Source of the DNA: a virus
Taxonomy: Duplodnaviria > Caudoviricetes
Length of the DNA: 39,819 bases
Direction: 5' to 3' (one strand)
IMG/VR virus record: IMGVR_UViG_3300020045_022011
Location: 1 to 39,819 of that record
Notes under the pieces: model-generated
What the model saw: only the letters and a program-made list of their open reading frames with translations
The model's database searches: none
Told to the model about the DNA's origin: nothing
Shown: one piece after another, positions 11,000 to 35,738 of the stretch
Position numbering within the stretch: the stretch's first letter is position 1
Layout of the letters: every line of letters begins with the position of its first letter
Made by a program: the position numbers and the translations under genes

Positions 11000-13900
11000 A
11001 TGAAAAATTTTGTTACTGTAAAGCTATACAAGTCATTGTTTAAATCAAAAAGTAACACCTATCATATTGATATAAGTTTACAAGAATGTGGGCATTTTTT
11101 AAGTTATTACTTACCCACATATGCCAATAAAAATTCCTTAATCTCTATTGTTAATGGAAAATACATTCCATTGGAAAAATACGACGTTGTAAAACTTAAA
11201 AAACATGATGAACTTATCATAAAAGTTTTACCTGGATTTGTAGAAAGTTTAGTTACTGCACTAATTTATGCAGCAATTAGTCTTGTTATTAGTTTAGCTA
11301 TTAGTGCTATTATGTATTTTGCATTTCCACCAAAAAAACCACAATTACGTACTCCAAAAGATGAAGTAGCGTATTCGTGGGATGGAATTACTACTACACA
11401 AGGACCAGGTAATGTTGTTCCTGTCGTATATGGTGAAGCAAAATTAGGAGGGCAGTTACTTCAGGCTTTTTACACACAACAACCTACAGTAGGGGGATAT
11501 GGTGGTATACCTTTAGTAAACCCAAAACCCTTACTTCAAGTACTTCTTGCCCTTTGTGAAGGTGAAATTGAGGATGTCCTCATAGACACCTTGACCGTAA
11601 ATAATCAACCAATTAATAATTTTCCTCAAATATCAGTACAAAAATCTTTAGGTGAAAACCCTAACATTTTACAATTTGGAGAAATTCAAAATACATTTTC
11701 TACTTCAAATACAGAAATATCACTCACACCTTTTATCTATACAACAACACAAGATGTTGATGCCGTTGTATTAAACATTCAATTTTTAGAAGGTTTATTT
11801 ACTATAGGGAGTAATGGTGGGAGCAGTCCAAATACTTCTGTGTTTCAATACAGAACACGCTTTTCTCCTGCAGGAGCATGGACAACATACACAGAAGTGC
11901 ATACAACATTAGAAGTCCATTCTATAGGATATAAACCAGTACGAATTGAATTTACTTCCCCCGTAGTCACAAGTCCTAACACCTATGACATTGAACTAAC
12001 ATTTGTTACTGCACAGTACATGAGCAATACACGTTCAAAATGGAAACCTTATCTTAATTCTGTAACAGAAATACTCTATGAAACTCAAAGTTTTCCAAAC
12101 ACCGCTCTACTGTACACAAGTGCATTAGCACAAGAAAATTTACAAGGTGCTCTCCCAAACTTTCAAGTAATTGTCCAAGGTCTTAAAGTTCGTGAAAACT
12201 CATTTACAGCCCCTAAAACATACAGTGATAATCCTGCATGGTGTTTAATGGACCTTATGACAAATACAAGGTACGCAGCTGCAATTGAAGACACAGAAAT
12301 TAACCTTGCTTCATTTATAGCTTTTGCAAATTATTGTGATGAACTTGTCGATTTTGATACTGATGGAGATGGTGATTCAGATGGTACAGAAAAACGTGCT
12401 ATTTTAAGTTATGTCCTTGATAGTGACAGACAGGCAATTGATGTATTTGAAGAATTACTCAGTGGTACACGTGGAGTACTCGTTAAAAGTGAAGGCCAAT
12501 GGAAAATTAAAATTGCAAAAAACGACACTCCTGTACAACTTGTAACATGGGCAAATACTCTACGAGACAGTGTGTTAATTCGATATATCAGAGATATAGA
12601 CTCAATTAATGTGTTAGAAGGGCGTTACCTCAATGCATACAATGCCTATGAAAACGATGTGGAGACATATCCCGAACATGCCGATTGGCCAAACGTAGTT
12701 AAAAAACTAAGTTTAGAATTTAAAGGGGTATCCCGCAATACTCAAGTTTTACGAGAACTATTTTTTGAATTACGAGCACGTACACTACCAAAGTTTACAA
12801 TTGAATTTTTAATACCTCTTGAAGGTATAGTTTTTGAAGTTATGGATATTATCAATTTCACCTATCCACAGTTTACAGAAAGTATTAGTGGACGAATTGC
12901 AGAAAAATATGGAGATGAAGTAAATACAGTTCGACAATTTATTATTGATGAAGATTTTACGTTTGAAGTTGGTGAGTCTTATATAGGAATTATTAAATAT
13001 CCAAACGATACACTTCAAACTATTATACTGGACAATCCTGCAACAAGTACAGATGTTACAACACGACGTATTGAGCTTGATGTAGGTGATCCTGATTTAA
13101 ATTTTATACCTACCGCTCTTGAAACACTGTACAGCATTGGTAATCAAACTGAAGTACTTACTTATCCTGTACGAGTTACAGACATTTCTAAAGATTCCGA
13201 ATTTACAGTACGTGTACAAGGTGTACAACATGTCCCTGAAATTTATGATGATTACTTAGCCTACAGTAATGTAAACCGTTTAGGAGCACGGCCATTTCAA
13301 GTTGGAACAAGGCCACCACCAATTATAAGTTTATTTGCAACTGAACAACTAACATTTGACGACAGTACACTTACAACAACACAAATTTTACGTGAAGTAA
13401 TGTTATTGGAATGGCAAGTTGCAGCAATTGATAGCAACCCAAATGAAGTATACGCTCCCTATGGAGGAGTAAACATTTACTCAGCATTTTCAAATTTTAC
13501 ATCATTACTAGGCACATTTAATCTTGGTACTACTCTCTTAGGAGGATTTGACAGTCTTACCACAAGTTTGAATTTAATTGCAACAATTAGAAATGGTGAT
13601 GTGTATTCCTATAAAGATGCACAATATAATAAAAATGGTCCTACTTTATATATTGTTGTACCTATATCACCTGCTGGAGTACCAAATAATGAAGGTGTTG
13701 GAACAGTACTTGTAACTCCTACAGGTGGTTTTTTTGCACCACCAGATGATTTTTTAGCAACTGGAGACAGCCCTACAACTGTAACCTTAACATGGAATGA
13801 TACAACAGATCCAAGGTTAGACAGTGTAAATATCTATAGGGGTACAGCCTTTAGTAGTGCGATATTCCTTATAAATGTTGCAATAGGAGTTGAGACGTAT

Positions 13901-14008
13901 GTTGATACAGGACTTACACCGCTAACAACGTATACCTATTGGGCCGTATCCGTACAAACTAATGGCAATCTTGGTTCAGAAACCTCATCGACAACAACAA
14001 CATTATAA
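11000..14008 (+). CDS. tail tip / central fibre protein (gpI-gpJ fusion) with C-terminal FN3 domain
   Basis: N-terminal gpI-like part (IVNG..., hydrophobic stretch, YSWDG..T..GPG.VVPVVYGE), then LALCEGEI, FPNTAL and YSDNPAWCLMDLMTNTRY (J signature). The C-terminus is FN3-like (VTLTWN...YVDTGLTPLTTYTYWA). Confidence 0.9.
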   Translation: MKNFVTVKLYKSLFKSKSNTYHIDISLQECGHFLSYYLPTYANKNSLISIVNGKYIPLEKYDVVKLKKHDELIIKVLPGFVESLVTALIYAAISLVISLAISAIMYFAFPPKKPQLRTPKDEVAYSWDGITTTQGPGNVVPVVYGEAKLGGQLLQAFYTQQPTVGGYGGIPLVNPKPLLQVLLALCEGEIEDVLIDTLTVNNQPINNFPQISVQKSLGENPNILQFGEIQNTFSTSNTEISLTPFIYTTTQDVDAVVLNIQFLEGLFTIGSNGGSSPNTSVFQYRTRFSPAGAWTTYTEVHTTLEVHSIGYKPVRIEFTSPVVTSPNTYDIELTFVTAQYMSNTRSKWKPYLNSVTEILYETQSFPNTALLYTSALAQENLQGALPNFQVIVQGLKVRENSFTAPKTYSDNPAWCLMDLMTNTRYAAAIEDTEINLASFIAFANYCDELVDFDTDGDGDSDGTEKRAILSYVLDSDRQAIDVFEELLSGTRGVLVKSEGQWKIKIAKNDTPVQLVTWANTLRDSVLIRYIRDIDSINVLEGRYLNAYNAYENDVETYPEHADWPNVVKKLSLEFKGVSRNTQVLRELFFELRARTLPKFTIEFLIPLEGIVFEVMDIINFTYPQFTESISGRIAEKYGDEVNTVRQFIIDEDFTFEVGESYIGIIKYPNDTLQTIILDNPATSTDVTTRRIELDVGDPDLNFIPTALETLYSIGNQTEVLTYPVRVTDISKDSEFTVRVQGVQHVPEIYDDYLAYSNVNRLGARPFQVGTRPPPIISLFATEQLTFDDSTLTTTQILREVMLLEWQVAAIDSNPNEVYAPYGGVNIYSAFSNFTSLLGTFNLGTTLLGGFDSLTTSLNLIATIRNGDVYSYKDAQYNKNGPTLYIVVPISPAGVPNNEGVGTVLVTPTGGFFAPPDDFLATGDSPTTVTLTWNDTTDPRLDSVNIYRGTAFSSAIFLINVAIGVETYVDTGLTPLTTYTYWAVSVQTNGNLGSETSSTTTTL

Positions 14009-14787: not shown

Positions 14788-14839
14788 AATTCATGCAAAA
14801 TATACAAATAAGTAATTGTAAAAAAAGGAGTTGTAGAAA

Positions 14840-16165
14840 ATGGGTGCCATAGGTGCTGGAAATTTAGGATCTGCCTATCCAAGCGCGTTAGACACACTAC
14901 TCTATGAAGCTGGTGGAGTAAGTGATTACGAAAATGCAGCAGTAACATTACCCGACAACAAGCAACGTATGGATGCGGAAGTTTTAAATGATGTACTTGA
15001 TGCAATTATAGCTATACAAACAACATTAGGAATTAACCCGCAAGATGTGTACACAGATGTTGATGCTCGTTTAGATGCCATTGCAGGTGCAGGATATACA
15101 GATGAACAAGCTCAAGATGCAATTGGCACAATTTTAACAGACAGTGCCTCTGTAGATTTTACATACAATGACGCAACCCCAAGTATTACCGCAGTAGTGT
15201 TACCAAATACAACTGTTCAAAAGGTAGAAGTTGTAAAAAACAGTGGTGCTGTAGTGGGTACACGTAAACAATTAAATTTTATAGAAGGTTCCAATGTTAC
15301 CCTAACCATTGCAGATGACGCTGGAAACGATCAAGTTGACATTACAATTGCAGGGAGTGTAAGTGGATACACGGATGAACAAGCTCAAGATGCCGTCGGT
15401 TCAATTTTAGTAGACACTGCAACAATTGACGTTACATATGATGATGCAACACCACAAATTACAATGGATGTTATTGCCAACACTACAAATCAGAAAGTTA
15501 GAGTTTCAAAAAATAGTGGTGCAGTTGTCGGTACTCGCAGGCAAATAAACTTTATAGAAGGAAGTAATGTTACATTAACCATTGCGGATGATGCAGGTGA
15601 CGATGAAGTTGATGTAACTATAAATGCAAGTGCTCCAGGTACTGGGGATGTTGTTGGACCTTCAAGTGCTGTTGATGCAGAAATTGTACTTTTTGATTCT
15701 ACAACTGGAAAACTTATTAAACGTGCAACAGGTAGTGGTATTGTTAAAGCGACAAGTGGGGTCTATTCAACTGTTACAGCTCCAACTGGTGCAATTGTTG
15801 GAACTACTGATACACAAACTTTAACAAATAAAACTGTACAACCTAGAGTTGTAACAGTTGCAGATGCTACTTCAATTACTCCAAATGCAGATACGACGGA
15901 TGTCTGTGAACAAATAAACACGCAAGGTGCAGGTACTTTAACTCTTAACGCTCCAACAGGTACACCGTATAACAGACAAAAAATGGAAATAGTTGTAGAT
16001 AGTACAAATATACACACCTTGTCATTTAATGCAATTTATCGTGGAAGTACTGATTTAACACTACCAACTGCTACAAGTGGGAGTGGTAAAACTGACTACA
16101 TGCTTGTGCAATACCATTCGACAGATGCGAAATGGGATATGCTCTCTAAAAATTTTGGATTTTAA
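14840..16165 (+). CDS. virion fibre/appendage protein with an internal 91-aa duplication
   Basis: AAGGAG RBS, T/D/G/V-rich. It has EQAQDA(I/V)G repeats, GDVVGPSSAVD..IVLFD.TTGKLIK and GTTDTQTLTNKT motifs of the kind seen in phage fibre proteins. Confidence 0.7.
   Translation: MGAIGAGNLGSAYPSALDTLLYEAGGVSDYENAAVTLPDNKQRMDAEVLNDVLDAIIAIQTTLGINPQDVYTDVDARLDAIAGAGYTDEQAQDAIGTILTDSASVDFTYNDATPSITAVVLPNTTVQKVEVVKNSGAVVGTRKQLNFIEGSNVTLTIADDAGNDQVDITIAGSVSGYTDEQAQDAVGSILVDTATIDVTYDDATPQITMDVIANTTNQKVRVSKNSGAVVGTRRQINFIEGSNVTLTIADDAGDDEVDVTINASAPGTGDVVGPSSAVDAEIVLFDSTTGKLIKRATGSGIVKATSGVYSTVTAPTGAIVGTTDTQTLTNKTVQPRVVTVADATSITPNADTTDVCEQINTQGAGTLTLNAPTGTPYNRQKMEIVVDSTNIHTLSFNAIYRGSTDLTLPTATSGSGKTDYMLVQYHSTDAKWDMLSKNFGF
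15092..15637 (+). repeat. two diverged 273-bp (91-aa) tandem copies
   Basis: GYTDEQAQDA...KNSGAVVGTR.Q.NFIEGSNVTLTIADDAG.D.VD begins at 15092 and again at 15365. Confidence 0.9.
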
Positions 16166-16195
16166 TTATAATTTTATTTTGTAAAGGTACCTATT

Positions 16196-17236
16196 ATGGC
16201 ATTAAGACATATTGATAGTTTTGATTTGTATGGGACTTCTCAAATTTTAAACAGATATACCAGCACTTTACTTGGTGCTAACGCTTCAGTCACAATACAA
16301 AGTGGTCAGGGTAGGCAATCACAGTCTTTACGAATAAGCCACGCTTCTGGTGGAACAAGTACCGTTGCACTCACAAAAACTATAGATAGTCAAAGCACAT
16401 GGTCTACTCATTTTGGAATGAAAACTACCACTTTTGCTTCTCAAAGAGATTTTTTATCTTTTAGAGATGCAGGATCAATACAAGTTGAATTACTTATAAA
16501 TACAGATGGTACAATCTCAGCAACACGAAATGGTACTGTTTTAGGAACAACTTCCTTGTCATTAAGTATAAACGTATATTACCATATTCAATGCAAGGTT
16601 GTAATACATGACACAACAGGTTCAGTACTAATAAAAATAAATAATGCAGAAGCATTAAATTTAACAAGTATAGACACAAAAAACACAGCAAATGCAACAG
16701 CAAACCAAATATACCTTGGGAATAACAGACTATCTGTAAATTCCTACACAATGGACATAGATGATTTAATAATAACTGACGGAACAGGTTCATCTCCTTA
16801 TAATGGTTTAATGGGAGATAAACGTGTTGATGCAGCATTATGTAATGGAGATGGTTCCACTACAGAATTTACTCTGTCAACAGGAAGTTCTCATTTTGCA
16901 TTACTTGATGAAAACCCACCAGTAACAACTGATTACGCTGAAAGTAGTACGGTAAACCATGTTGAACTATTAACTTTTCCAGATTTACCTACTTTAACAT
17001 CTGCAACAGTGGATGCCGTCCAAATATTAATGTTTGCAAATAATCCAGAAGGAGGTGGACGTACTATAGCCGGACATGTAAAATCTAGCGCTGCTACTGC
17101 TACTGGCAGTGGATTTGCTCTAACAGTAGGTGCTACATATTATGCGGATATATTTACACAAGACCCGAATACAGCAGGAGCATGGACACAAACTACAGTA
17201 AATGCCGCAGAGTTTGGTGCAAAAATTACAGCGTAG
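16196..17236 (+). CDS. virion structural protein with a ConA/LamG-like beta-sandwich
   Basis: MAL..IDSFD N-terminus, lectin-like strands (YYHIQCKVVIHDTTGSVLIKIN...IDDLII.D) and a C-terminal DPNT.GAWT...VNAAEFG motif typical of phage structural proteins. Confidence 0.65.
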   Translation: MALRHIDSFDLYGTSQILNRYTSTLLGANASVTIQSGQGRQSQSLRISHASGGTSTVALTKTIDSQSTWSTHFGMKTTTFASQRDFLSFRDAGSIQVELLINTDGTISATRNGTVLGTTSLSLSINVYYHIQCKVVIHDTTGSVLIKINNAEALNLTSIDTKNTANATANQIYLGNNRLSVNSYTMDIDDLIITDGTGSSPYNGLMGDKRVDAALCNGDGSTTEFTLSTGSSHFALLDENPPVTTDYAESSTVNHVELLTFPDLPTLTSATVDAVQILMFANNPEGGGRTIAGHVKSSAATATGSGFALTVGATYYADIFTQDPNTAGAWTQTTVNAAEFGAKITA

Positions 17237-19434: not shown

Positions 19435-19911
19435 TTACGGATAACAACTAATGTATTGTGCAGCTTGACCTTCACAATTATCAAAATCATTTCCCCCATT
19501 CAAAATATCAGAATAGGTATTCCCAACTAAAATATCAGAACCATCCCCACCTCGAAATGTTGTCGGGGTATCCCCTAAATTCACCATTTGATCATCACCA
19601 CTATTGCCGTAATGTTCACTTCCCCCATTTAAAAGTTGGATGTAGTCATTACCACTTCCACCACGGGTAATTGCCATCGTATGTGTAACACAAATCAAAT
19701 CGTTACCTTGCAATCCATACACCACAGCATACCCAGTTACACAAATTACATCATTACCAGTTGTCCCATTACAAATTTCAGGATTACCTGTACAAGTTAA
19801 GGTGACATTTTGTCCTAAACATGTACCACTAGTAGAACAATTATTTGCAAATGCAAACGTTGTAAAAAATAATACACTTAAAAAAATACAACTGTATAGA
19901 AATTTTTTCAT
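19435..19911 (-). CDS. exported Cys-rich protein with RTX/hemolysin-type Ca-binding repeats (paralogue 4)
   Basis: Signal peptide MKKFLYS...TFAFA; repeats GLQGNDLI, GGSGNDYI, GNSGDDQM, GGDGSDIL, GGNDFDNC. Confidence 0.88.
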   Translation of the reverse strand: MKKFLYSCIFLSVLFFTTFAFANNCSTSGTCLGQNVTLTCTGNPEICNGTTGNDVICVTGYAVVYGLQGNDLICVTHTMAITRGGSGNDYIQLLNGGSEHYGNSGDDQMVNLGDTPTTFRGGDGSDILVGNTYSDILNGGNDFDNCEGQAAQYISCYP

Positions 19912-19928
19912 ATAATTTTCCTTTTTGT

Positions 19929-19974
19929 AAGGTGTTTAAGTTTTATATTTTACATATTAAAACTTAAACACCTT
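19929..19974. other. perfect 17-bp inverted repeat (stem-loop) between paralogues 3 and 4
   Basis: AAGGTGTTTAAGTTTTA (19929-19945), a 12-nt loop, then TAAAACTTAAACACCTT (19958-19974). Confidence 0.85.
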
Positions 19975-19981
19975 TGTAAAT

Positions 19982-20464
19982 TTAATCTAATTCACATTTA
20001 TGTTTAATTGGACTTACATGTACACCATGGCAATAGTCAACACCATTTCCACCATACAATCTATCAGCCATATAGGTACTACTTAAACTGTCATTTCCAT
20101 CACCACCACGTAATAATGTTAAATACGCCCCAAAATTAACCATTACATCATCTCCTGGACCTCCATAATGTGTACCTCCACCATATGTTAAAGCAATAGT
20201 GTCATTCCCTTTACCTCCCCGTGCACTTGCATGGAGAGTATCTACACAGATAAAATCATCTCCTGCCAATCCATATGCCACTGTATATTCTCCAGTAACA
20301 CATAAAACATCATTCTGCATTGTTCCATAACACACTGCACTATCACAATGCATCGTAACAAGTTTCCCCATACACAAACCTGTACTTCCGCAATTTGCTA
20401 GTGCAAAAACAGGCATAAACATTACACATAACATGGAAAAAATATACTTTTTACAAAGACTCAT
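19982..20464 (-). CDS. exported Cys-rich RTX-repeat protein (paralogue 3)
   Basis: Signal peptide ...MPVFALA; repeats GLAGDDFI, GGKGNDTI, GGPGDDVM, GGDGNDSL, GGNGVDYC. Confidence 0.88.
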   Translation of the reverse strand: MSLCKKYIFSMLCVMFMPVFALANCGSTGLCMGKLVTMHCDSAVCYGTMQNDVLCVTGEYTVAYGLAGDDFICVDTLHASARGGKGNDTIALTYGGGTHYGGPGDDVMVNFGAYLTLLRGGDGNDSLSSTYMADRLYGGNGVDYCHGVHVSPIKHKCELD

Positions 20465-20474
20465 GCATTACCCC

Positions 20475-20996
20475 TTAATTACTAATTACAGGAACGACTA
20501 CAATTTCTTCACAATCATAAAAAGTAGCGGAATCAACACTAGTTTCGCAATAGTCATTACCTTTTCCACCAGCCAACGTATCATCAACATTTGCCCCTCT
20601 TAAAACATCATCCCCTCTATTACCGTACAATAATGCCATGTCTGGACCATTACTGACCAATGTATCATCACCATTATCACCTAAATGGGCACCACCACCA
20701 TTTAGAACAAGAATATAATCATCCCCATTACCACCATGAGTAACGGAACTTACACTTTCTACACAAATTTTATCAACTCCATTTAGCGCAAAAACTTCAA
20801 CTGGAGCAGTAACACAAATTACATCAGATTTATTCGTTCCATAACAAGGATCATCTACACCATCACACACAATTGTGACAACTTCACCTAAACACATACC
20901 ATCAGAACACACGTGTGCACTTGAAAATGCCAATGGGGTAACAATAAAATACAACAATACTGTACTTGCAATAATTAAACTTTTCAAATTTTTCAT
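20475..20996 (-). CDS. exported Cys-rich RTX-repeat protein (paralogue 2)
   Basis: Likely start MKNLKSLII at 20996 (AAAGGA RBS); repeats GGNGDDYI, GDNGDDTL, GNRGDDVL, GGKGNDYC. Confidence 0.88.
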   Translation of the reverse strand: MKNLKSLIIASTVLLYFIVTPLAFSSAHVCSDGMCLGEVVTIVCDGVDDPCYGTNKSDVICVTAPVEVFALNGVDKICVESVSSVTHGGNGDDYILVLNGGGAHLGDNGDDTLVSNGPDMALLYGNRGDDVLRGANVDDTLAGGKGNDYCETSVDSATFYDCEEIVVVPVISN

Positions 20997-21006
20997 ATAG
21001 TATCCT

Positions 21007-21483
21007 TTACTCACAATTTAAAAATAGTGAACTTTGAGAAACAGAGACGCAACGGTCAACATCAGGACCACCATTTAAAGTATTATCCGAAGCTAAACTT
21101 ACAAGATTATCATCTCCAAAACCACCACGTAAAATTGCAGGAAGTGTCCCTCTATTTACTAAAATATCATTTCCCATATTTCCCCAATGTTCACCTCCCC
21201 CATTTATAAGTACAATAACGTCATTACCGTTTCCACCGCGAACTTTTGCTTCTGTTGCTTCAACACAAATGGTGTCATTTCCTCCTTTTGCAAAAACAAG
21301 GCCATTTCCAGATACATAAATCACATCGTTTTCATCTGTACCAATACAATAGTCTTTACTACCATCACATACAATTGTGACAGTTTTTCCTAAGCAGGTA
21401 AAATCATAACAGTCTGAAGCAAAGGAAAACTGCGTACACATTAACAGTACCACACTAAAAACTACAACCTTTAGATTTTTCAT
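21007..21483 (-). CDS. exported Cys-rich RTX-repeat protein (paralogue 1)
   Basis: GAGGT RBS; signal peptide MKNLKVVV...QFSFA; repeats AKGGNDTI, GGNGNDVI, GNMGNDIL, GGFGDDNL, GGPDVDRC. Confidence 0.88.
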   Translation of the reverse strand: MKNLKVVVFSVVLLMCTQFSFASDCYDFTCLGKTVTIVCDGSKDYCIGTDENDVIYVSGNGLVFAKGGNDTICVEATEAKVRGGNGNDVIVLINGGGEHWGNMGNDILVNRGTLPAILRGGFGDDNLVSLASDNTLNGGPDVDRCVSVSQSSLFLNCE

Positions 21484-23625: not shown

Positions 23626-23650
23626 ATAACTGTATACAGGAGTAAGTTGT

Positions 23651-26428
23651 ATGTATAAATTGTGGAAATTATTGTATGTACTATTTGTGATAGTGTACTT
23701 TTCACACTATGTAGGTGCAGTACCTGCTGTATTACCTCGTGAATATGATATAATTTATGTGAATGCCCCTCGCATAGGTGGAGATTTGCAAACTTCAAAA
23801 ATACCAGATGTGTCAAATCCGTTAGCGTTACCTCCAGGTTCAAACTTGGTAGTTTTAGAAAAAGATCAAACTGTACCAAAAGTGCTTATTGATACTCTTG
23901 GTAAAGGTGCAATTTTTGATCCTGTACTGTCGTATGATGGTAAATGGGTATATTTTAGTTGGTGTTATGATGTTGAAAATTTAAATATACAACGAAATTT
24001 ACCGAGAACAGGGTGTGACATTTGGAAATATAAATTTTCTACAGGAGAAAAGTTTCAATTAACACAATGGGAAACTATGTGGAGAAAACAACCCTTACCA
24101 AACAAACAATGGTCTAAAGATACCCAATATGCAGATCCCCCTGGCAGTATGTACTTAGGGTATGGTATTTTTAATATGGCTCCAGTACCACTGTCAATTG
24201 ATGAGGAACAGTATTCAAAATTTCTTTTTACAAGTAATGCAAATAATCTTGTGCCAGTTGGTAATGCGGAAAAAAAAGTATCGGGTACAAATGTTGTCAT
24301 GCAAATGTTTATTTTTGATAGTAGAACAGGTGAATTTGAATTATTTTGGCCTTCTCCTGCAAGTTGCCTTCATCCAATTATGACTTCTACGGGGAAAATT
24401 CTTGCAAGTTGTCAAGCAAATCAAGGTACACGTGATAATAGACCTTGGGAAATTTTACGTTGGGAACAAGATGGTAGTGAGTTTTCCCCTGTATATTCCG
24501 GGATAATGGATGCATTACATGCTCGTCATGGTTGTACAACTACACGAGGAAATTACGCAATTTGTAGTGTATATTATTTAAGTTTTAACTTTTTAGGTGC
24601 TTTACAAAAAGCACCTTTATTTCCGTCTCCAAGTACACAATTTCCAGCATTTGGTCCACCTGAAGCGAATCAAAATGTTGCAATTCAAGCAGGACCGTTT
24701 AGAACTGTACGAAGTTCTTTTACTCCTACGGGTATGGAAACATTAACACCGTTTACTCATTTTTTTGACGAACCTGCGCCATTAGTGAATGGGGTGTATG
24801 CTGGAAAAGTAGGCTGGCCTTGGGTAGCTCCAAATGATACAATTCTTGTGAGTGCTTCAAAAGGTCCAGTACACATAAAACTTTCTGGTTCAGTGGATAC
24901 ACCAATGCCAGACTTAGGAATTTATGAAATTGTCAATGGTATTTCTGTTAATGCATTTGAAGAAATGCGAGATGTTGTAAATGACCCGTTGTACAATGAG
25001 GTATTCGCACGTGCAGTAGTACCATGGGAACAAGTGTATGGTGGGGTCCATCCAATCCAAGATGCAAAAGTAAAAAATGATGGAAAAATATCAAAGTGGT
25101 TACCTGCAGGAACGCCGTGGTCTATTGTTGGCTCAAGTAGTGTTTACAATCGGCAATCTAAAGCGGGTCAAAGTGCACCAGGTTGGAGTGGGCAACATAG
25201 TGATTATGGGCGGAGCGATAGTTACACAAATTTTAATTCTCAAGGTGGAGATGCCTATAACTTTCGTAATGATGAAATTCGTTCTATTCGCATAATCGCT
25301 CAAAGTGGGGTGCAGTGGGAATCCTACAATTCCCAGTTTGGGCAAGCAAATCCTAATCATTTTCTTTCTGCAACTGGTAATGAAAGATTACGAACTATTG
25401 CAGAAGTTCCCTTATTAAAATTTGATGCACTTGGTACACTACTCTATGATAAATGGGGAAATCCAGATACATCATTTAAGGTACTTGTGCCGTGCCGCAC
25501 TGCTTTTACTTTTGATTTAGTTGGTGAGTATGGACAAACATTATCCCATGCGTTTACGTGGCATGCTACTGCGTGTGGGGAAGTTCGTACAAATTGTGGT
25601 GGGTGCCATGCTCACAATCTTCCAGAACATAAATTTGAAGAAACACTTTCTGCGAATGATAAACTCCCTCCTGTTATTTCAAATTTAACAGGGTACACCT
25701 TTGAATATCGTGAAGATATTGAACCTATATTTCTTGAGAAATGTTCATCGTGTCACAATACGACATTAAAAGCTGGAAATATAGATTTTACTGATGGTAC
25801 ACTTGTAAAAAGTGTTCCACGTTCATACGCTCAAATTTTTCACGATCAAAGTGGAGAAATTAGTGGGATAATTCCTTTATTCTATCTTTCGAGTAAAAGG
25901 GATTCCTTTTTTGCAATGCGTATGAGTGCATTTCGGAGTAATGTTGTTGCTGCAATTTTTAATAGACGATTAGATAACATATCTAATAACATGTTTTACA
26001 CAGAGGGAATTAGGGGGGATAGAAATACTCTTGATATGCAGGCAAAAACATACACGACAGATATTGATTATTTTTCAATACCTGAACATGAAAATTTAGG
26101 ATTGACAGACAGTCAACGATTTGCAATAATAAATTTTATTGACAGTGGTGCTCCAATTAACATTGACATGAATACAACATGGAAATTGGATACGTTTTCT
26201 CCTGTTATTTCGTTTTTTGTAAATGCAAAACGTATTATTTTTGGTACGGTAGATATAGGGAGTGGTGTAGATATTTCAACAATTCAAATTACGAAAAATG
26301 GGCAAATTGTTCCATTTAGAGTTTTAGCACGTAATCGGTATTCTGTTCCTTATTCTCCTGGAGTTTGGAAGTTTGAAGTTTTAGATTTTGCAAAAAATGT
26401 TGCAAATCGAAGTGTTATTTTTGAATAA
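23651..26428 (+). CDS. exported beta-propeller / di-heme c-type cytochrome, HzsA (hydrazine synthase alpha subunit)-related family
   Basis: AGGAG RBS and an N-terminal signal peptide. It has a TolB/PD40-like DPVLSYDGKWVYFS motif, an HZS-alpha middle-domain-like SFKVLVP.RTAFTFDLV...G......TW.....GEVRTNCGGCH segment and a second YREDIEPIFLEKCSSCH motif. Confidence 0.8.
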   Translation: MYKLWKLLYVLFVIVYFSHYVGAVPAVLPREYDIIYVNAPRIGGDLQTSKIPDVSNPLALPPGSNLVVLEKDQTVPKVLIDTLGKGAIFDPVLSYDGKWVYFSWCYDVENLNIQRNLPRTGCDIWKYKFSTGEKFQLTQWETMWRKQPLPNKQWSKDTQYADPPGSMYLGYGIFNMAPVPLSIDEEQYSKFLFTSNANNLVPVGNAEKKVSGTNVVMQMFIFDSRTGEFELFWPSPASCLHPIMTSTGKILASCQANQGTRDNRPWEILRWEQDGSEFSPVYSGIMDALHARHGCTTTRGNYAICSVYYLSFNFLGALQKAPLFPSPSTQFPAFGPPEANQNVAIQAGPFRTVRSSFTPTGMETLTPFTHFFDEPAPLVNGVYAGKVGWPWVAPNDTILVSASKGPVHIKLSGSVDTPMPDLGIYEIVNGISVNAFEEMRDVVNDPLYNEVFARAVVPWEQVYGGVHPIQDAKVKNDGKISKWLPAGTPWSIVGSSSVYNRQSKAGQSAPGWSGQHSDYGRSDSYTNFNSQGGDAYNFRNDEIRSIRIIAQSGVQWESYNSQFGQANPNHFLSATGNERLRTIAEVPLLKFDALGTLLYDKWGNPDTSFKVLVPCRTAFTFDLVGEYGQTLSHAFTWHATACGEVRTNCGGCHAHNLPEHKFEETLSANDKLPPVISNLTGYTFEYREDIEPIFLEKCSSCHNTTLKAGNIDFTDGTLVKSVPRSYAQIFHDQSGEISGIIPLFYLSSKRDSFFAMRMSAFRSNVVAAIFNRRLDNISNNMFYTEGIRGDRNTLDMQAKTYTTDIDYFSIPEHENLGLTDSQRFAIINFIDSGAPINIDMNTTWKLDTFSPVISFFVNAKRIIFGTVDIGSGVDISTIQITKNGQIVPFRVLARNRYSVPYSPGVWKFEVLDFAKNVANRSVIFE

Positions 26429-31727: not shown

Positions 31728-31840
31728 GTTTTCTTGCAGTTGTAGGGTTGCTCTACATTTTATGTTTAATTGTTTTCAATATAAAAACTCGAAATTGTAA
31801 AAATAAAAAGGGAAATTCATGGGGGTTTTTTATAAGTTAA
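31724..31840 (+). CDS. small single-TM protein (38 aa)
   Basis: ATGA overlap with the preceding stop, G-rich RBS, and a hydrophobic N-terminus followed by a basic tail. Confidence 0.45.
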   Translation: MSFLAVVGLLYILCLIVFNIKTRNCKNKKGNSWGFFIS

Positions 31841-32220
31841 GTGTTATACTTTTTCTATGTGTAGTGTATACTAGTGCAATTGCTCATGACAATTTTCATC
31901 AAATGGATTGGATTAAAAACTATACAGGTAAACGTGGTGCAAATTGTTGTGGGAAACAAGATTGTGTTCCTGCAAATATACGGGTGACTCATCAAACTGT
32001 TGACACACTTAATTTAGAAATTACTCGTAATGAAAAAACGTTTTCAATTGTGGGGTTTCCATCAAAAGGTTTTCATTTGTCTGAAGATGCCTACGATTAT
32101 TTTTGCTTTACTGTGGCGTTTACCGATGAATCTATGCAATACCTTCCTGAGAAATATCCGTGTGCAATTTCCCCAAATGAAGAATGTGTAAATTGTGTTT
32201 TTATTAGTGTAAAATTTTAA
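31819..32220 (+). CDS. exported Cys-rich small protein
   Basis: Signal peptide ending SAIA|HD; W....G...CCGKQDCVP...S.D....FC...C.....C..C.F. Confidence 0.7.
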   Translation: MGVFYKLSVILFLCVVYTSAIAHDNFHQMDWIKNYTGKRGANCCGKQDCVPANIRVTHQTVDTLNLEITRNEKTFSIVGFPSKGFHLSEDAYDYFCFTVAFTDESMQYLPEKYPCAISPNEECVNCVFISVKF

Positions 32221-32236
32221 TACAAGGCTAATTTGT

Positions 32237-32482
32237 ATGCTTTCTGTAAGGGCGTATCATGACTGTTATCTTTGTGCATCTGGTTGTTGTGGACATGTAT
32301 TGGAGATACGTAGAAATGGGGAAGTGATACATGATGAGGCTATTTTTATTCATAACGATAATTTTGAAGAAATTGAATTTTTGAAAAGGTTACTTATTGA
32401 TTCTGAATTTAACGTTCCTATTGGTGAAGAAATACAGTATAATGTAGATGATTCTGATATTAGAACGTACTCTCTTTGTTAA
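32237..32482 (+). CDS. hypothetical protein
   Basis: 81 aa with a CYLCASGCCGH motif. Confidence 0.6.
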   Translation: MLSVRAYHDCYLCASGCCGHVLEIRRNGEVIHDEAIFIHNDNFEEIEFLKRLLIDSEFNVPIGEEIQYNVDDSDIRTYSLC

Positions 32483-32504
32483 TTTAAAGAAAGACAAATA
32501 TTCT

Positions 32505-35500
32505 ATGTATACCCGTGATGAAGTTTATGCGCATAGTTTAGACTATTTTTCAAACGATGAATTAGCTGCTGAAGTGTTTGTTGATAAATACGCTTTACGT
32601 AATCAGCATGGAGAATATTTTGAACGTACTCCAGAAGATATGCATAAAAGGCTTGCAACTGAATTTTCACGAATAGAACAAAAATATATTAACCCATTGT
32701 CCTATGAAGAAATTTTAAACTACTTTAGAGAATGGGAGATTGTTCCCCAAGGGAGTATTTTAAACATTGTTGGAAATCCTTTTGTACAAGGTTCTCCTGC
32801 AAACTGTTCAGTAGTTCCTAGCCCAGTCGATTCATATTCTGGTATTCTGTACACAGACACACAACTTGCCTCGTTGTTTAAACGTAGGTATGGTGTTGGG
32901 GTGAGTTTGGATAATATACGCCCAGCAAATAGTCCAGTAAACAACCCAGCATTAACAAGTACAGGAGTTGTATCCTTTGCTCAACGGTACTCTAACACTA
33001 CAAGAGAAGTAGGTCAAAATGGGCGTAGGGGAGCGCTTATGCTTACATTAAGCGTGTACCATCCTGATATTATTGAATTTATAAAGGCTAAAGTTAATTT
33101 AGAAAAAATTACTGGTGCGAATATCTCAGTTAAATTGTATGATTCTTTTATGCGTGCAGTTGAAAAAGATGAAAATATTACCTTACATTGGCCTCTTGGT
33201 GATGTAGACAAAGCTCAAATTGTTAAACAAGTACGTGCTGTGGATATTTGGAATTTATTTATTGAATCAAATATTACAAGTGCAGAACCGGGCGCATTGT
33301 TTTGGGATACAATAACAAAGTATAGTTTATCAAATTGTTATGTTCCTGATGAGTGTGTGAATCCTTGTCAACCAGGATTTGCACCAGTTCTAACACCAGA
33401 TGGCATAAAGACATTAGATAGTTGTGATATTGGTAGTGTTATTTGGTCTACTGAGGGATGGACCACCATTGTAAATAAATGGTCAAATGGTGTAAAGAAG
33501 GTGTATAAGTATACTACAAATTCTGGTTCGTTTATTGGTACGGAAAATCATCTAATAATCGAAAATGATAAAAAAATAGAAGTAAAAAATGCAAAAAAAT
33601 TAAATACGTTAAAAGGCCCTATCTTTTGGACGAGTGAACAGGATGTAATTGATTTTTTCTGTGAAGGGGAACATACAAAGTTTTTTTATTCTAGAGATTT
33701 TTTTGAGTTGTGTCCAGATACGTTAGGGATTCAGCTCAATAATAGTTTGGAGTATATAATATATTTTTTAAAATTGTTGTACGATGATCATGGAGATGTT
33801 TCTAAAGAAGGAGTTTCGCTATATTCAAAACATGTGTTATTTTTAGAAAGAATACAACTTTTACTTAATAGCGTAGGTGTTTCTTCAGTTTTAGAAGAAT
33901 CTTACCCTTTAAGTGAATGGTATGTTTTAAGTATTTTTGAAGATGCATCTGTATTTGAAAAGTGTATAGGTTTTTATAAGGAAGATAAACAGCACCAATT
34001 GGAAAAATTTTTATTAAATGCAGTGTATAGTGGTATCGAATGCGATAGTCCAATTACGAAAATTAAATATCTAGGAGAGTTTGAAGTTTTTGACATTACA
34101 GTGTCTAATTCAACACATACGTATTGGACTGGTGGGATTAATGTTTCAAACTGTAGTGAATTGAGTTTACCAAGTTATGAGACTTGTAGACTTATTACAG
34201 TAAACCCATTTAAGTTTGTACAAAATCCATTTACAGAAAATGCAAATTTTGAATTTGAAAGGTTTGGAGAATGTGTATACGTTGCTCAACGTTTAATGGA
34301 TGATGTTGTAGATTTAGATATTGAATGCTTAGAACGCATTAAAGAAAAAATTGAAAATGACCCTGAAGAATGGAGTATTAAACAAATTGAATATGACACT
34401 ATTCTAAAATTTATAGACACTGCTAGAAAATATAGGCGTACGGGTCTTGGTACTTTAGCTTTGGCAGATGTATTCGCTTCAATGGGAATGGGGTATGCTT
34501 CTGAAGAATCTATACAGCTCTCTGATGCTATTATGCGTGTAAAAATGGAAAATGAATTTGCAAGTTCAATAGATATGGCTCTTGAACGTGGGCCTTTTGA
34601 AGGGTTTGATTCTTCACTTGAAGTCACTTCTCCATTATTTCAATTTTTTAAGGAAAAATTTCCAGATTTAGCCCAAAGAATGGAAAACTATGGACGCCGT
34701 AATATTTCAATTTCTACTATTGCTCCTACTGGCTCAATTGCAATAGAAGCACAAGTTTCCGCTGGTATGGATCCCGTGTATTATTTAGAGTTTATACGAC
34801 GTAAAAAACTTATGGGGGGTAACAAAAGTGAAGCAGATTATATTGACATTGTTGGAGATTGTTGGACAGAGCATACAATTGTCCATCCCCCATATGCGTA
34901 TATGTGTAATCTTGAACAACAGGGAGTTCAAACATTTCTAAAAAATCCTTACAATGGCAACACTGCGCATGATATTGACCCGTTTCAGAAACTAAAACTT
35001 CATGCTGTATTGCAGAAATACATTACCCATAGTATTTCTAATACATACAATTTACCAGAAAATACAAGCGTTGAAACAGTAAGTAGATTGTACTTCAAAG
35101 CATGGGGGATGGGTATTAAAGGTATTACAGTGTATGTTGAAGGTTCTAGAAGTGGAGTGTTGGTTTCAAATGCCACGTACAACAAGCAAAAGGGAATTCC
35201 CTTAAAAAGACCAGAAGTCTTACCTTGTGACATTCATGAATTTCTATTGCATACTGAAAATGACACCTTTGAGAAATGGCTAGCTTTTGTGGGCATGTGT
35301 AACAGGTCACCGTATGAATTGTTTATTGGTAAATTGGATAATATGAATTTGCCAGAAGGTATCCTTTCTTCTCAAATTCGTAAAATTAAATTAAATAATG
35401 TAAATTCTTATGTGCTAGAATGTCAACTTTTAAATGAAAAAAAGTATGTCTATGGGGATTTGTCGCGTTTATTTAATAGGGAGTTTTGGAATTATGCAAA

Positions 35501-35738
35501 ATTGGTAAGTGGTCTCTTGCGGCATAATATGCCATTGCAGTATATCATTCATACTATTGAAAATATGAAATTTGATACAGTAAGTTTACATACGTGGCAA
35601 GCTGGCATTGTTCGTGTGTTAAAATCATACATTCCAGATGGTGTTGTGTCAAAAAACACTTGTGCTACTTGCGGAAATCAGTTAATATTTATAGATGGTT
35701 GTTTGAGTTGTACATGTGGTTACAGTAAGTGTTCTTAG
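32505..35738 (+). CDS. nrdJ: class II (adenosylcobalamin-dependent) ribonucleotide reductase, intein-containing
   Basis: VFVDKYAL, ANCSV, GVGVSLDNIRP, GQNGRRGALM, ANISV, SAEPGALFWD, NP|C-SE, RRTGLG, IAPTGS, SISNTYNLP, KGITVY, and a C-terminal Zn ribbon. No beta-subunit gene is nearby. Likely ATG at 32505. Confidence 0.92.
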   Translation: MYTRDEVYAHSLDYFSNDELAAEVFVDKYALRNQHGEYFERTPEDMHKRLATEFSRIEQKYINPLSYEEILNYFREWEIVPQGSILNIVGNPFVQGSPANCSVVPSPVDSYSGILYTDTQLASLFKRRYGVGVSLDNIRPANSPVNNPALTSTGVVSFAQRYSNTTREVGQNGRRGALMLTLSVYHPDIIEFIKAKVNLEKITGANISVKLYDSFMRAVEKDENITLHWPLGDVDKAQIVKQVRAVDIWNLFIESNITSAEPGALFWDTITKYSLSNCYVPDECVNPCQPGFAPVLTPDGIKTLDSCDIGSVIWSTEGWTTIVNKWSNGVKKVYKYTTNSGSFIGTENHLIIENDKKIEVKNAKKLNTLKGPIFWTSEQDVIDFFCEGEHTKFFYSRDFFELCPDTLGIQLNNSLEYIIYFLKLLYDDHGDVSKEGVSLYSKHVLFLERIQLLLNSVGVSSVLEESYPLSEWYVLSIFEDASVFEKCIGFYKEDKQHQLEKFLLNAVYSGIECDSPITKIKYLGEFEVFDITVSNSTHTYWTGGINVSNCSELSLPSYETCRLITVNPFKFVQNPFTENANFEFERFGECVYVAQRLMDDVVDLDIECLERIKEKIENDPEEWSIKQIEYDTILKFIDTARKYRRTGLGTLALADVFASMGMGYASEESIQLSDAIMRVKMENEFASSIDMALERGPFEGFDSSLEVTSPLFQFFKEKFPDLAQRMENYGRRNISISTIAPTGSIAIEAQVSAGMDPVYYLEFIRRKKLMGGNKSEADYIDIVGDCWTEHTIVHPPYAYMCNLEQQGVQTFLKNPYNGNTAHDIDPFQKLKLHAVLQKYITHSISNTYNLPENTSVETVSRLYFKAWGMGIKGITVYVEGSRSGVLVSNATYNKQKGIPLKRPEVLPCDIHEFLLHTENDTFEKWLAFVGMCNRSPYELFIGKLDNMNLPEGILSSQIRKIKLNNVNSYVLECQLLNEKKYVYGDLSRLFNREFWNYAKLVSGLLRHNMPLQYIIHTIENMKFDTVSLHTWQAGIVRVLKSYIPDGVVSKNTCATCGNQLIFIDGCLSCTCGYSKCS
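33366..34151 (+). mobile_element. intein (262 aa) in the RNR active-site loop with a degenerate LAGLIDADG remnant
   Basis: Starts CQPGFAPVLTPDG after N-P; block B GTENH, block F VFDITV, block G GGINVSN followed by +1 Cys (C-S-E). The internal FLKLLYDDHGDV...S....LERIQLLLNSVGV resembles a decayed endonuclease. Confidence 0.93.

Follow-up and report, generated by a model that had tools for sequence, protein, structure and literature searches.

An HzsA-related di-haem protein gene carried by a tailed phage and recurring in further viral records

The closest described system for the gene reported here is the alpha subunit of hydrazine synthase, HzsA, of Kuenenia stuttgartiensis (PDB 5C2V/5C2W chain A), in which His587 binds zinc together with Cys303, while Tyr591, located four residues after the CxxCH histidine, serves as ligand of the haem-I iron (accessible parts of PMC12607021 and PMC12758564). 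Within the accessible part of PMC12758564, Cys303 is also missing in some anammox bacteria, HzsA homologues without key residues are described with no mention of phages in that text, and anammox hydrazine synthase alpha is thought to have derived from the HzsA-related family. The sole characterised relative was reported to process hydroxylamine at the corresponding haem (PMC12607021, accessible part), and hzs-like genes were proposed to form a wider family with other substrates (PMC10732223, accessible part). As to redox genes of phages, soxD was described as cytochrome c cargo (PMC8190135, accessible part), and the available text of PMC8115048 describes viral nirK and norB, with hydrazine synthase named only in a figure legend. 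The present work concerns the IMG/VR virus record IMGVR_UViG_3300020045_022011 (Duplodnaviria; Caudoviricetes), which was analysed over its whole length of 39,819 nucleotides (hereafter the window), is estimated to be 36% complete and carries, at positions 23651-26428 (+), the gene of an HzsA-related di-haem protein. Like soxD, nirK and norB, this gene specifies an exported or membrane redox protein reliant on host cofactor machinery; in contrast to these copies of known pathway enzymes, haem genes of the present kind span 2.6-4 kb, have no assigned activity and often reside in virion modules.

The gene is very probably a genuine, maintained phage cargo, and its product is likely to be an exported enzyme working at haem I. 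The open reading frame (ORF) is uninterrupted, comprises 925 codons without internal stop codons and follows an AGGAG ribosome-binding site, while the encoded N-terminus is hydrophobic when judged by a hydropathy proxy (best 11-residue mean 2.86, as against ≤1.24 for later 19-residue windows), as is that of 8/8 intact viral copies tested by the same proxy. Together with the two CxxCH motifs, CGGCH and CSSCH, this gives the pattern of a c-type cytochrome, namely haem motifs within a protein predicted to be exported. The initial annotation, which had described an intact ORF, the AGGAG site, a signal-peptide-like start and both motifs, was thus accurate in all these respects. The features of the gene are as follows.

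23638..23642 (+): Shine-Dalgarno sequence AGGAG, 8 nt before the ATG of the haem gene, read from the sequence
23651..26428 (+): HzsA-related (PF18582-type) di-haem protein gene, intact, 925 residues, from ORF, homology and model fold
23651..23719 (+): signal-peptide-like N-terminus, residues 1-23, from the hydropathy proxy and a model helix at 2-21; putative cleavage site
23729..25033 (+): TolB-type beta-propeller, residues ~27-461, from VIA Z 26 to TolB
within 23729..25033 (+): propeller residues His241 (24371), His293 (24527) and Tyr309 (24575), from conservation
25034..25705 (+): HZS-alpha middle domain with approximate boundaries, from the Pfam HZS_alpha match at residues 604-653, profile and structure
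25595..25615 (+): haem-I motif CGGCH-A-H with C649, C652, H653 and H655, CGGCH itself being residues 649-653 (25595-25609)
25742..25756 (+): haem-II motif CSSCH, residues 698-702, inside a class-I cytochrome-c-like domain (residues ~686-842)
26087..26089 (+): His813, likely haem-II distal ligand, from conservation; putative ligation
26177..26425 (+): C-terminal Ig-like seven-stranded beta-sandwich, residues 843-925, from model and structure matches

Structural comparison placed the protein next to hydrazine synthase alpha, as the initial annotation had proposed. The AlphaFold model (predicted local distance difference test, pLDDT, 76; predicted template modelling score 0.81) found 5c2v_A as its top Foldseek match (E 3e-27), the VIA comparison with hydrazine synthase alpha gave a Z of 31.9 over 603 aligned residues at a root mean square deviation of 4.0, and a profile comparison returned an E of 2e-23. 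A protein search yielded 49 relatives (27-34% identity, best E 7e-116), all of them PF18582 proteins, and both CxxCH motifs are kept in the 41/41 that were aligned; motifs and homology hence lie far beyond chance, and the atlas score for HzsA-related (PF18582) membership is 0.97. From N- to C-terminus, the predicted protein consists of a signal peptide, the propeller, the haem-I and cytochrome-c domains and the Ig-like tail, whereby propeller, middle haem domain and cytochrome-c domain follow each other as in HzsA. TolB is the next-best solved fold after HzsA for residues 27-461 (Z 25-26, identity 10-15%), differing from the phage protein in having no haem domains. The propeller part of the annotated TolB/PD40-like motifs is therefore upheld by structure, whereas PD40 had no Pfam match in the window protein. 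In a similar manner, Pfam HZS_alpha matched residues 604-653 with an E of 4e-4, but its 21.3 bits lie below the gathering cut-off of 26.6, a score which 9/9 other viral copies scanned surpass. When modelled alone, the Ig-like tail (843-925) reached a pLDDT of 94.7 and matched many Ig/Fn3 domains with a Z of ~8, and weak Big domain matches in relatives agree on this C-terminal region. A direct PDB sequence search with the window protein gave no match, PHROGs held no family for it, and the viral structures of BFVD yielded generic propellers only, with no full-length match.

The resemblance to HzsA extends to the overall fold, the two CxxCH motifs and a histidine at the haem-II distal position (His772 in HzsA), which would be compatible with a true hydrazine synthase alpha subunit taken from an anammox host; yet such an origin is next to inconceivable. 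At 15-20% identity, the phage protein possesses a CxxCHxH motif where HzsA has its Tyr591-ligated, zinc-bound haem: the Tyr591 position is occupied by Leu657 (Gln in 68/75 GTDB copies) and, in the profile alignment, the Cys303 position by Ile285 (Phe in most relatives). The score against the HzsA model NCBIfam NF052339 was 17.5 bits versus a cut-off of 800. No beta-gamma-type gene was found, with CCP_MauG in 0/12 viral records (that of the window and the 11 described below), 0/3 near-complete ones included, 9/12 being incomplete and the window's record standing at 36%; the phage protein further differs in its extra Ig-like tail, in an apparent lack of beta/gamma subunits and in being phage-encoded. 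None of the 80 closest GTDB loci belongs to an anammox organism. The earlier judgement that the protein is probably not a true hydrazine synthase thus stands.

A search of viral databases revealed 11 further IMG/VR records carrying the haem gene (alignment-based scans gave 5, then 9, then 2 further records), corresponding to 10 distinct proteins, with that of L101 being identical to that of L087 over their overlap. As the scans depend on exact short patterns, these numbers are to be read as minima, and against 2.9 million contigs the phage-borne gene is rare. The distinct viral proteins share 23-58% pairwise identity and fall into eight groups. PHROG phage genes were found in the flanks of 11/11 further records: terminase or portal lie near the haem gene in L002, L005, L087, L089, L090, L097 and L101, tape measure or tail genes in L004 and L088, and primase, helicase and RecT in L001, which encodes terminase, portal and coat elsewhere; the weakest phage setting is that of L003, comprising virion-structural and HNH families only. 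Three carrier records are 91-100% complete and 40-50 kb long, and here the haem gene takes up 5-10% of the DNA. To our knowledge, small phages rarely devote such a share of their genome to one exported enzyme that needs the host haem-c machinery, and the combination of eight divergent phage sequence groups with an invariant haem site indicates that its activity is of benefit to the phage. Viral contigs scanned with a single protein, P0001 or P0051, gave no relative, the L088 protein found only itself, and tblastn of P0001 and P0008 against 50,697 GenBank phage records gave no match. In the literature searched, with supplements and subscription papers outside its scope, no report of the family in phages was found, and phage carriage of an HzsA-related haem protein hence appears to be unreported.

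Several neighbourhoods of the viral copies deserve description in their own right. A conserved block between terminase and portal is shared by L005 (2858-9064), L087 (2493-10128) and L089 (2626-12008), in which the haem gene is accompanied by that of a small signal-peptide-like protein and by two others of no recognised family. In the complete 50-kb phage L001, a run of small signal-peptide-like proteins, one with fn3, lies downstream of the haem gene (14800-17053). L003 encodes at 12242-13981 (+) a sulfatase with signal-peptide-like start, which overlaps the end of a haem gene whose product has lost haem II; glycosyltransferases are located near the haem gene in L002, and LamG is among the occasional neighbours.

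Within the window, four small ORFs come before the haem gene, and the replication block comes after it on the same strand. To its left, PHROGs and Pfam identified tail tube, tape measure, tail fibre J and endolysin of a long-tailed phage, and to its right DnaB, primase, exonuclease, a B12-type ribonucleotide reductase, MazG and RuvC. The G+C content at third codon positions (GC3) is 0.20 for the haem gene and 0.21 for the other 33 window genes, whereas 75 bacterial homologues have a median of 0.81; the codon preferences of the haem gene match those of the window neighbours, not those of the homologues. Both the phage location on a virus contig and the composition matching that of neighbouring genes, as claimed initially, are therefore confirmed; phage flanks, phage-like codons and recurrence in other phages coincide in this gene. 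An assembly chimera, or a neutral and decaying passenger from host DNA, could be argued for from the single contig, the best identity of only 37% to any relative and the long branch of the protein; in view of codon usage that is phage-like and unlike that of bacterial homologues, of the lack of internal stop codons, of the 11 other viral records and of the retention of all core residues, such an explanation is very improbable. No long repeat flanks the haem gene among those listed, and a promoter scan of the region was uninformative (16 sites versus 23 expected). A near-consensus extended sigma-70 site (11/12 plus TG) lies at 26102-26130 (+), inside the 3'-terminal part of the haem gene and ahead of the replication genes, with no regional excess of such sites.

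Conservation was counted over 239 family rows, with a viral set of 11 rows covering the site. Across the 239 rows the haem-I cysteines and His653 are conserved to 100%, His655 to 99%, Tyr309 to 98%, His293 to 97% and His241 to 94%; among the viral rows CxxCHxH is present in 11/11, as are His241, His293 and Tyr309 each, at 23-58% identity, while conservation of Tyr308 was not upheld in the viral alignment. Judged by this conservation, selection would act on haem I together with the propeller residues. The pair of haem motifs is found in 75/75 GTDB copies, 91/106 divergent representatives and 10/11 viral rows. It is haem II that varies in divergent and viral copies, being lost in L003 and missing from 15/106 divergent representatives. 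By a crude pattern count, the haem-II distal candidate in the 75 GTDB copies is Met in 55, His in 11 and Cys in 9, and His813 is invariant in the window's 7-member clade. The best-scoring relative, P0051, has a haem-I CxxxCH with three residues between the cysteines, not two. The window protein further contains 8 non-haem cysteines forming 4 pairs, of which 105/122, 295/305 and 615/642 co-occur elsewhere (19, 5 and 3 rows with both); these pairs may well be disulfides, and read in this way they fit the export of the haem protein.

Phylogenetically, the window protein groups with six clusters (P0051-P0054, P0058, P0072; FastTree support 99, IQ-TREE 100 for the three included). Viral copies occur at several places in all three trees, with L002 beside Gemmatales each time. 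Monophyly of the viral copies was not rejected by the approximately unbiased (AU) test under LG+G4 (p 0.145, 14 vs 16 rows, four unplaced metagenome proteins being counted on the viral side), whereas a mixture model rejected it (p 0.030, 9 vs 12 rows). Several captures of the gene by phages, rather than a single origin, are favoured from these trees, and only favoured, because the AU tests differ by model and row set and long branches are involved.

Bacterial relatives are numerous: an estimated ~1,100 GTDB stretches show the pattern, and the best 80 of these, which were examined, come from Lysobacterales, Thermoanaerobaculia, Binatia, Planctomycetota, Verrucomicrobiota and others. Full-length identity to the stand-alone subfamily is 27-37%, with 37% for the closest relative found, and the window protein can be placed, as a refinement of the first assignment, in this subfamily with CxxCHxH haem-I motif and C-terminal Ig-like domain. 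As compared to bacterial PF18582 proteins, with which it shares the conserved core at 27-37% full-length identity, the phage copy is compact and more diverged, has four added cysteine pairs, carries His for Met at haem II and has no F-x-D-G-F-E tail. This tail, presumably a sorting signal, ends 24/75 bacterial copies (L006-L085) and is absent from 9 viral copies tested. An exhaustive search returned 131 clusters at E ≤1e-30; 24/30 cluster representatives looked up were single-member clusters and 3 had an NCBI record, and the divergent member P0117, outside the window's clade, derives from a Ca. Tectimicrobiota assembly. A metagenome scan with P0051 gave only five short haem-motif matches, the contig of P0051 itself not being among them, and a host search by sampled genomes gave matches in 16/401 and 1/401, at no more than 47% identity to the viral query. 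Flank clustering of 85 loci, many of them short, found no neighbour family in more than 7; PF18582 clades described in the accessible part of PMC12758564 adjoin beta-gamma-like genes, whereas no such neighbour recurs in these 85 loci. Ig, dockerin, TSP3, Calx-beta, fn3 or similar add-ons occur in 17/30 long relatives. One Gemmataceae genome (G012, contigs C92 and C276; L082) carries HZS_alpha genes in tandem, as two arrays of three.

Because haem c is added only once the polypeptide has been exported, the phage must rely on Sec and haem-c maturation of its host, and a signal peptide is required irrespective of where the protein ends up; a cytochrome c assembly protein gene was found in 0/12 viral records, 9/12 of which are incomplete. 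The reading tentatively preferred here, held with somewhat less than even conviction, assumes an exported, stand-alone oxidative haem enzyme on the host surface or the extracellular matrix. The protein is predicted to leave the cytoplasm via host Sec and to be loaded with two c-type haems by host machinery. Its active site would be formed by haem I (CxxCHxH) together with His241, His293 and Tyr309 of the propeller, while haem II may be an optional relay; the lack of partners and the dispensability of haem II would point to a self-contained reaction. The Ig-like tail could keep the enzyme on or near the surface, where a surface or matrix polymer may be the substrate, and oxidation of this polymer might mask receptors from rival phages or loosen the matrix for progeny release. 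Polymer oxidation is favoured on account of the Ig-like tail, of the adhesin-type add-ons in long relatives and of the sulfatase, glycosyltransferase or LamG genes that occasionally lie nearby; this role is likewise advanced with reservation.

An alternative, rather unlikely in comparison, is that the exported haem enzyme disposes of a small reactive molecule such as peroxide, nitric oxide or hydroxylamine and so protects the infected cell or lysogen. Function without partner genes, the conserved His and Tyr near haem I and a haem II that can be lost, which fits chemistry without an electron chain, all accord with this explanation, as does the hydroxylamine processing at the same haem of the only characterised relative (PMC12607021, accessible part). 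Such a task would hardly call for a 100-kDa protein with Ig-like tail and adhesin-type add-ons, and neither a stress-gene neighbourhood in the flank clustering of 85 loci nor a broad bacterial distribution was seen, the family being patchy (16/401 and 1/401 sampled genomes). Loss of haem II weighs differently on the idea of an auxiliary metabolic gene that feeds electrons to host respiration, as periplasmic dehydrogenase or conduit, and raises energy during infection: here the relay haem is precisely the dispensable one, and no respiratory partner lies beside bacterial or viral copies. Two haems with a cytochrome-c-type relay domain, the soxD precedent (PMC8190135, accessible part) and the position of the window copy directly before replication genes speak for it, but it is the least probable of the functions considered in this and the next paragraph.

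Slightly less doubtful than a respiratory role, yet still improbable, is a non-catalytic surface or virion protein whose propeller and Ig domain bind receptor or glycan for adhesion, receptor masking or TolB-like interference, with the haem as structural relic or sensor. The gene is placed in packaging, tail or lysis modules by 9/12 records, the propeller is most like TolB, and viral nosD-like proteins have been reassigned to adhesion (PMC13452462, accessible part). What argues against mere binding is that haem I and the three propeller residues are invariant in the covering viral rows at ~25% identity; moreover, identity to TolB is only 10-15%, the export signal speaks against cytoplasmic virion assembly, and BFVD viral structures hold no full-length match.

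Several observations weigh against the preferred reading of a surface-acting oxidative enzyme carried as phage cargo. In the accessible part of PMC12758564, no activity has been tested for any member of the stand-alone subfamily. The connection to a polymer is weak, with the sulfatase family in only 6/85 loci, one being phage L003, and carbohydrate-binding modules belong to other HzsA-related clusters. The window copy itself lies on a long branch, keeps 150/257 family-conserved columns (58%, others 68-100%), has Trp for the family His389 and contains a cysteine pair, 239/254, that has no support in other rows. GC3 of the gene tracks that of its flanks (Spearman 0.96, n=10, L097 and L101 left out), which speaks for phage cargo, but the correlation takes in three related phages, and shared phage-host composition would equally produce it. 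An integrase was found in only 1/12 records (tyrosine integrase 1/12), serine recombinases in 0/12. Finally, the position of the gene is mixed: 3/12 records place it with replication genes and 9/12 in modules for virion structure, packaging or lysis, so that the description of the gene as one among early genes holds for the window and 2 other records but not for the remaining 9, and no single timing fits.

Apart from the haem gene, the window encodes what may be regarded as a second exported cargo of the same phage, a set of four tandem paralogues at 19435-21483 (-), which are 158-179 residues long, signal-peptide-like, cysteine-containing and equipped with RTX calcium-binding repeats; only two weak outside relatives were found, for one of them. 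A perfect 17-bp inverted repeat with 12-nt spacer (19929-19974) lies between two of these genes. In the replication block, 31819-32220 (+) encodes a cysteine-rich protein of 133 residues with signal-peptide-like start and no Pfam, PHROG or NCBIfam family, and the B12-dependent ribonucleotide reductase gene at 32448-35738 (+) shows two matched stretches with a weak LAGLIDADG match in between, consistent with an intein.

What is new here is that a family known, though uncharacterised, is carried recurrently across unrelated tailed phages. The phage copies give a handle on a large family without assigned function and, being compact and partner-free, lend themselves to biochemical work; at the same time, 'hydrazine synthase' domain matches in viral data are not to be taken as anammox genes. 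A more far-reaching proposal, unlikely as a whole, is that phages form the main reservoir of the family's diversity, most of the hundred-odd divergent metagenome clusters with a single member being viral, and that they harbour a new haem-plus-metal site, in which, by analogy with HzsA, His655 would bind the iron while His653 and propeller His293 would hold a second metal. If true, this site would correspond to the zinc/tyrosine haem found in hydrazine synthase, of which it might be a forerunner, and would serve phages in remodelling the host surface.

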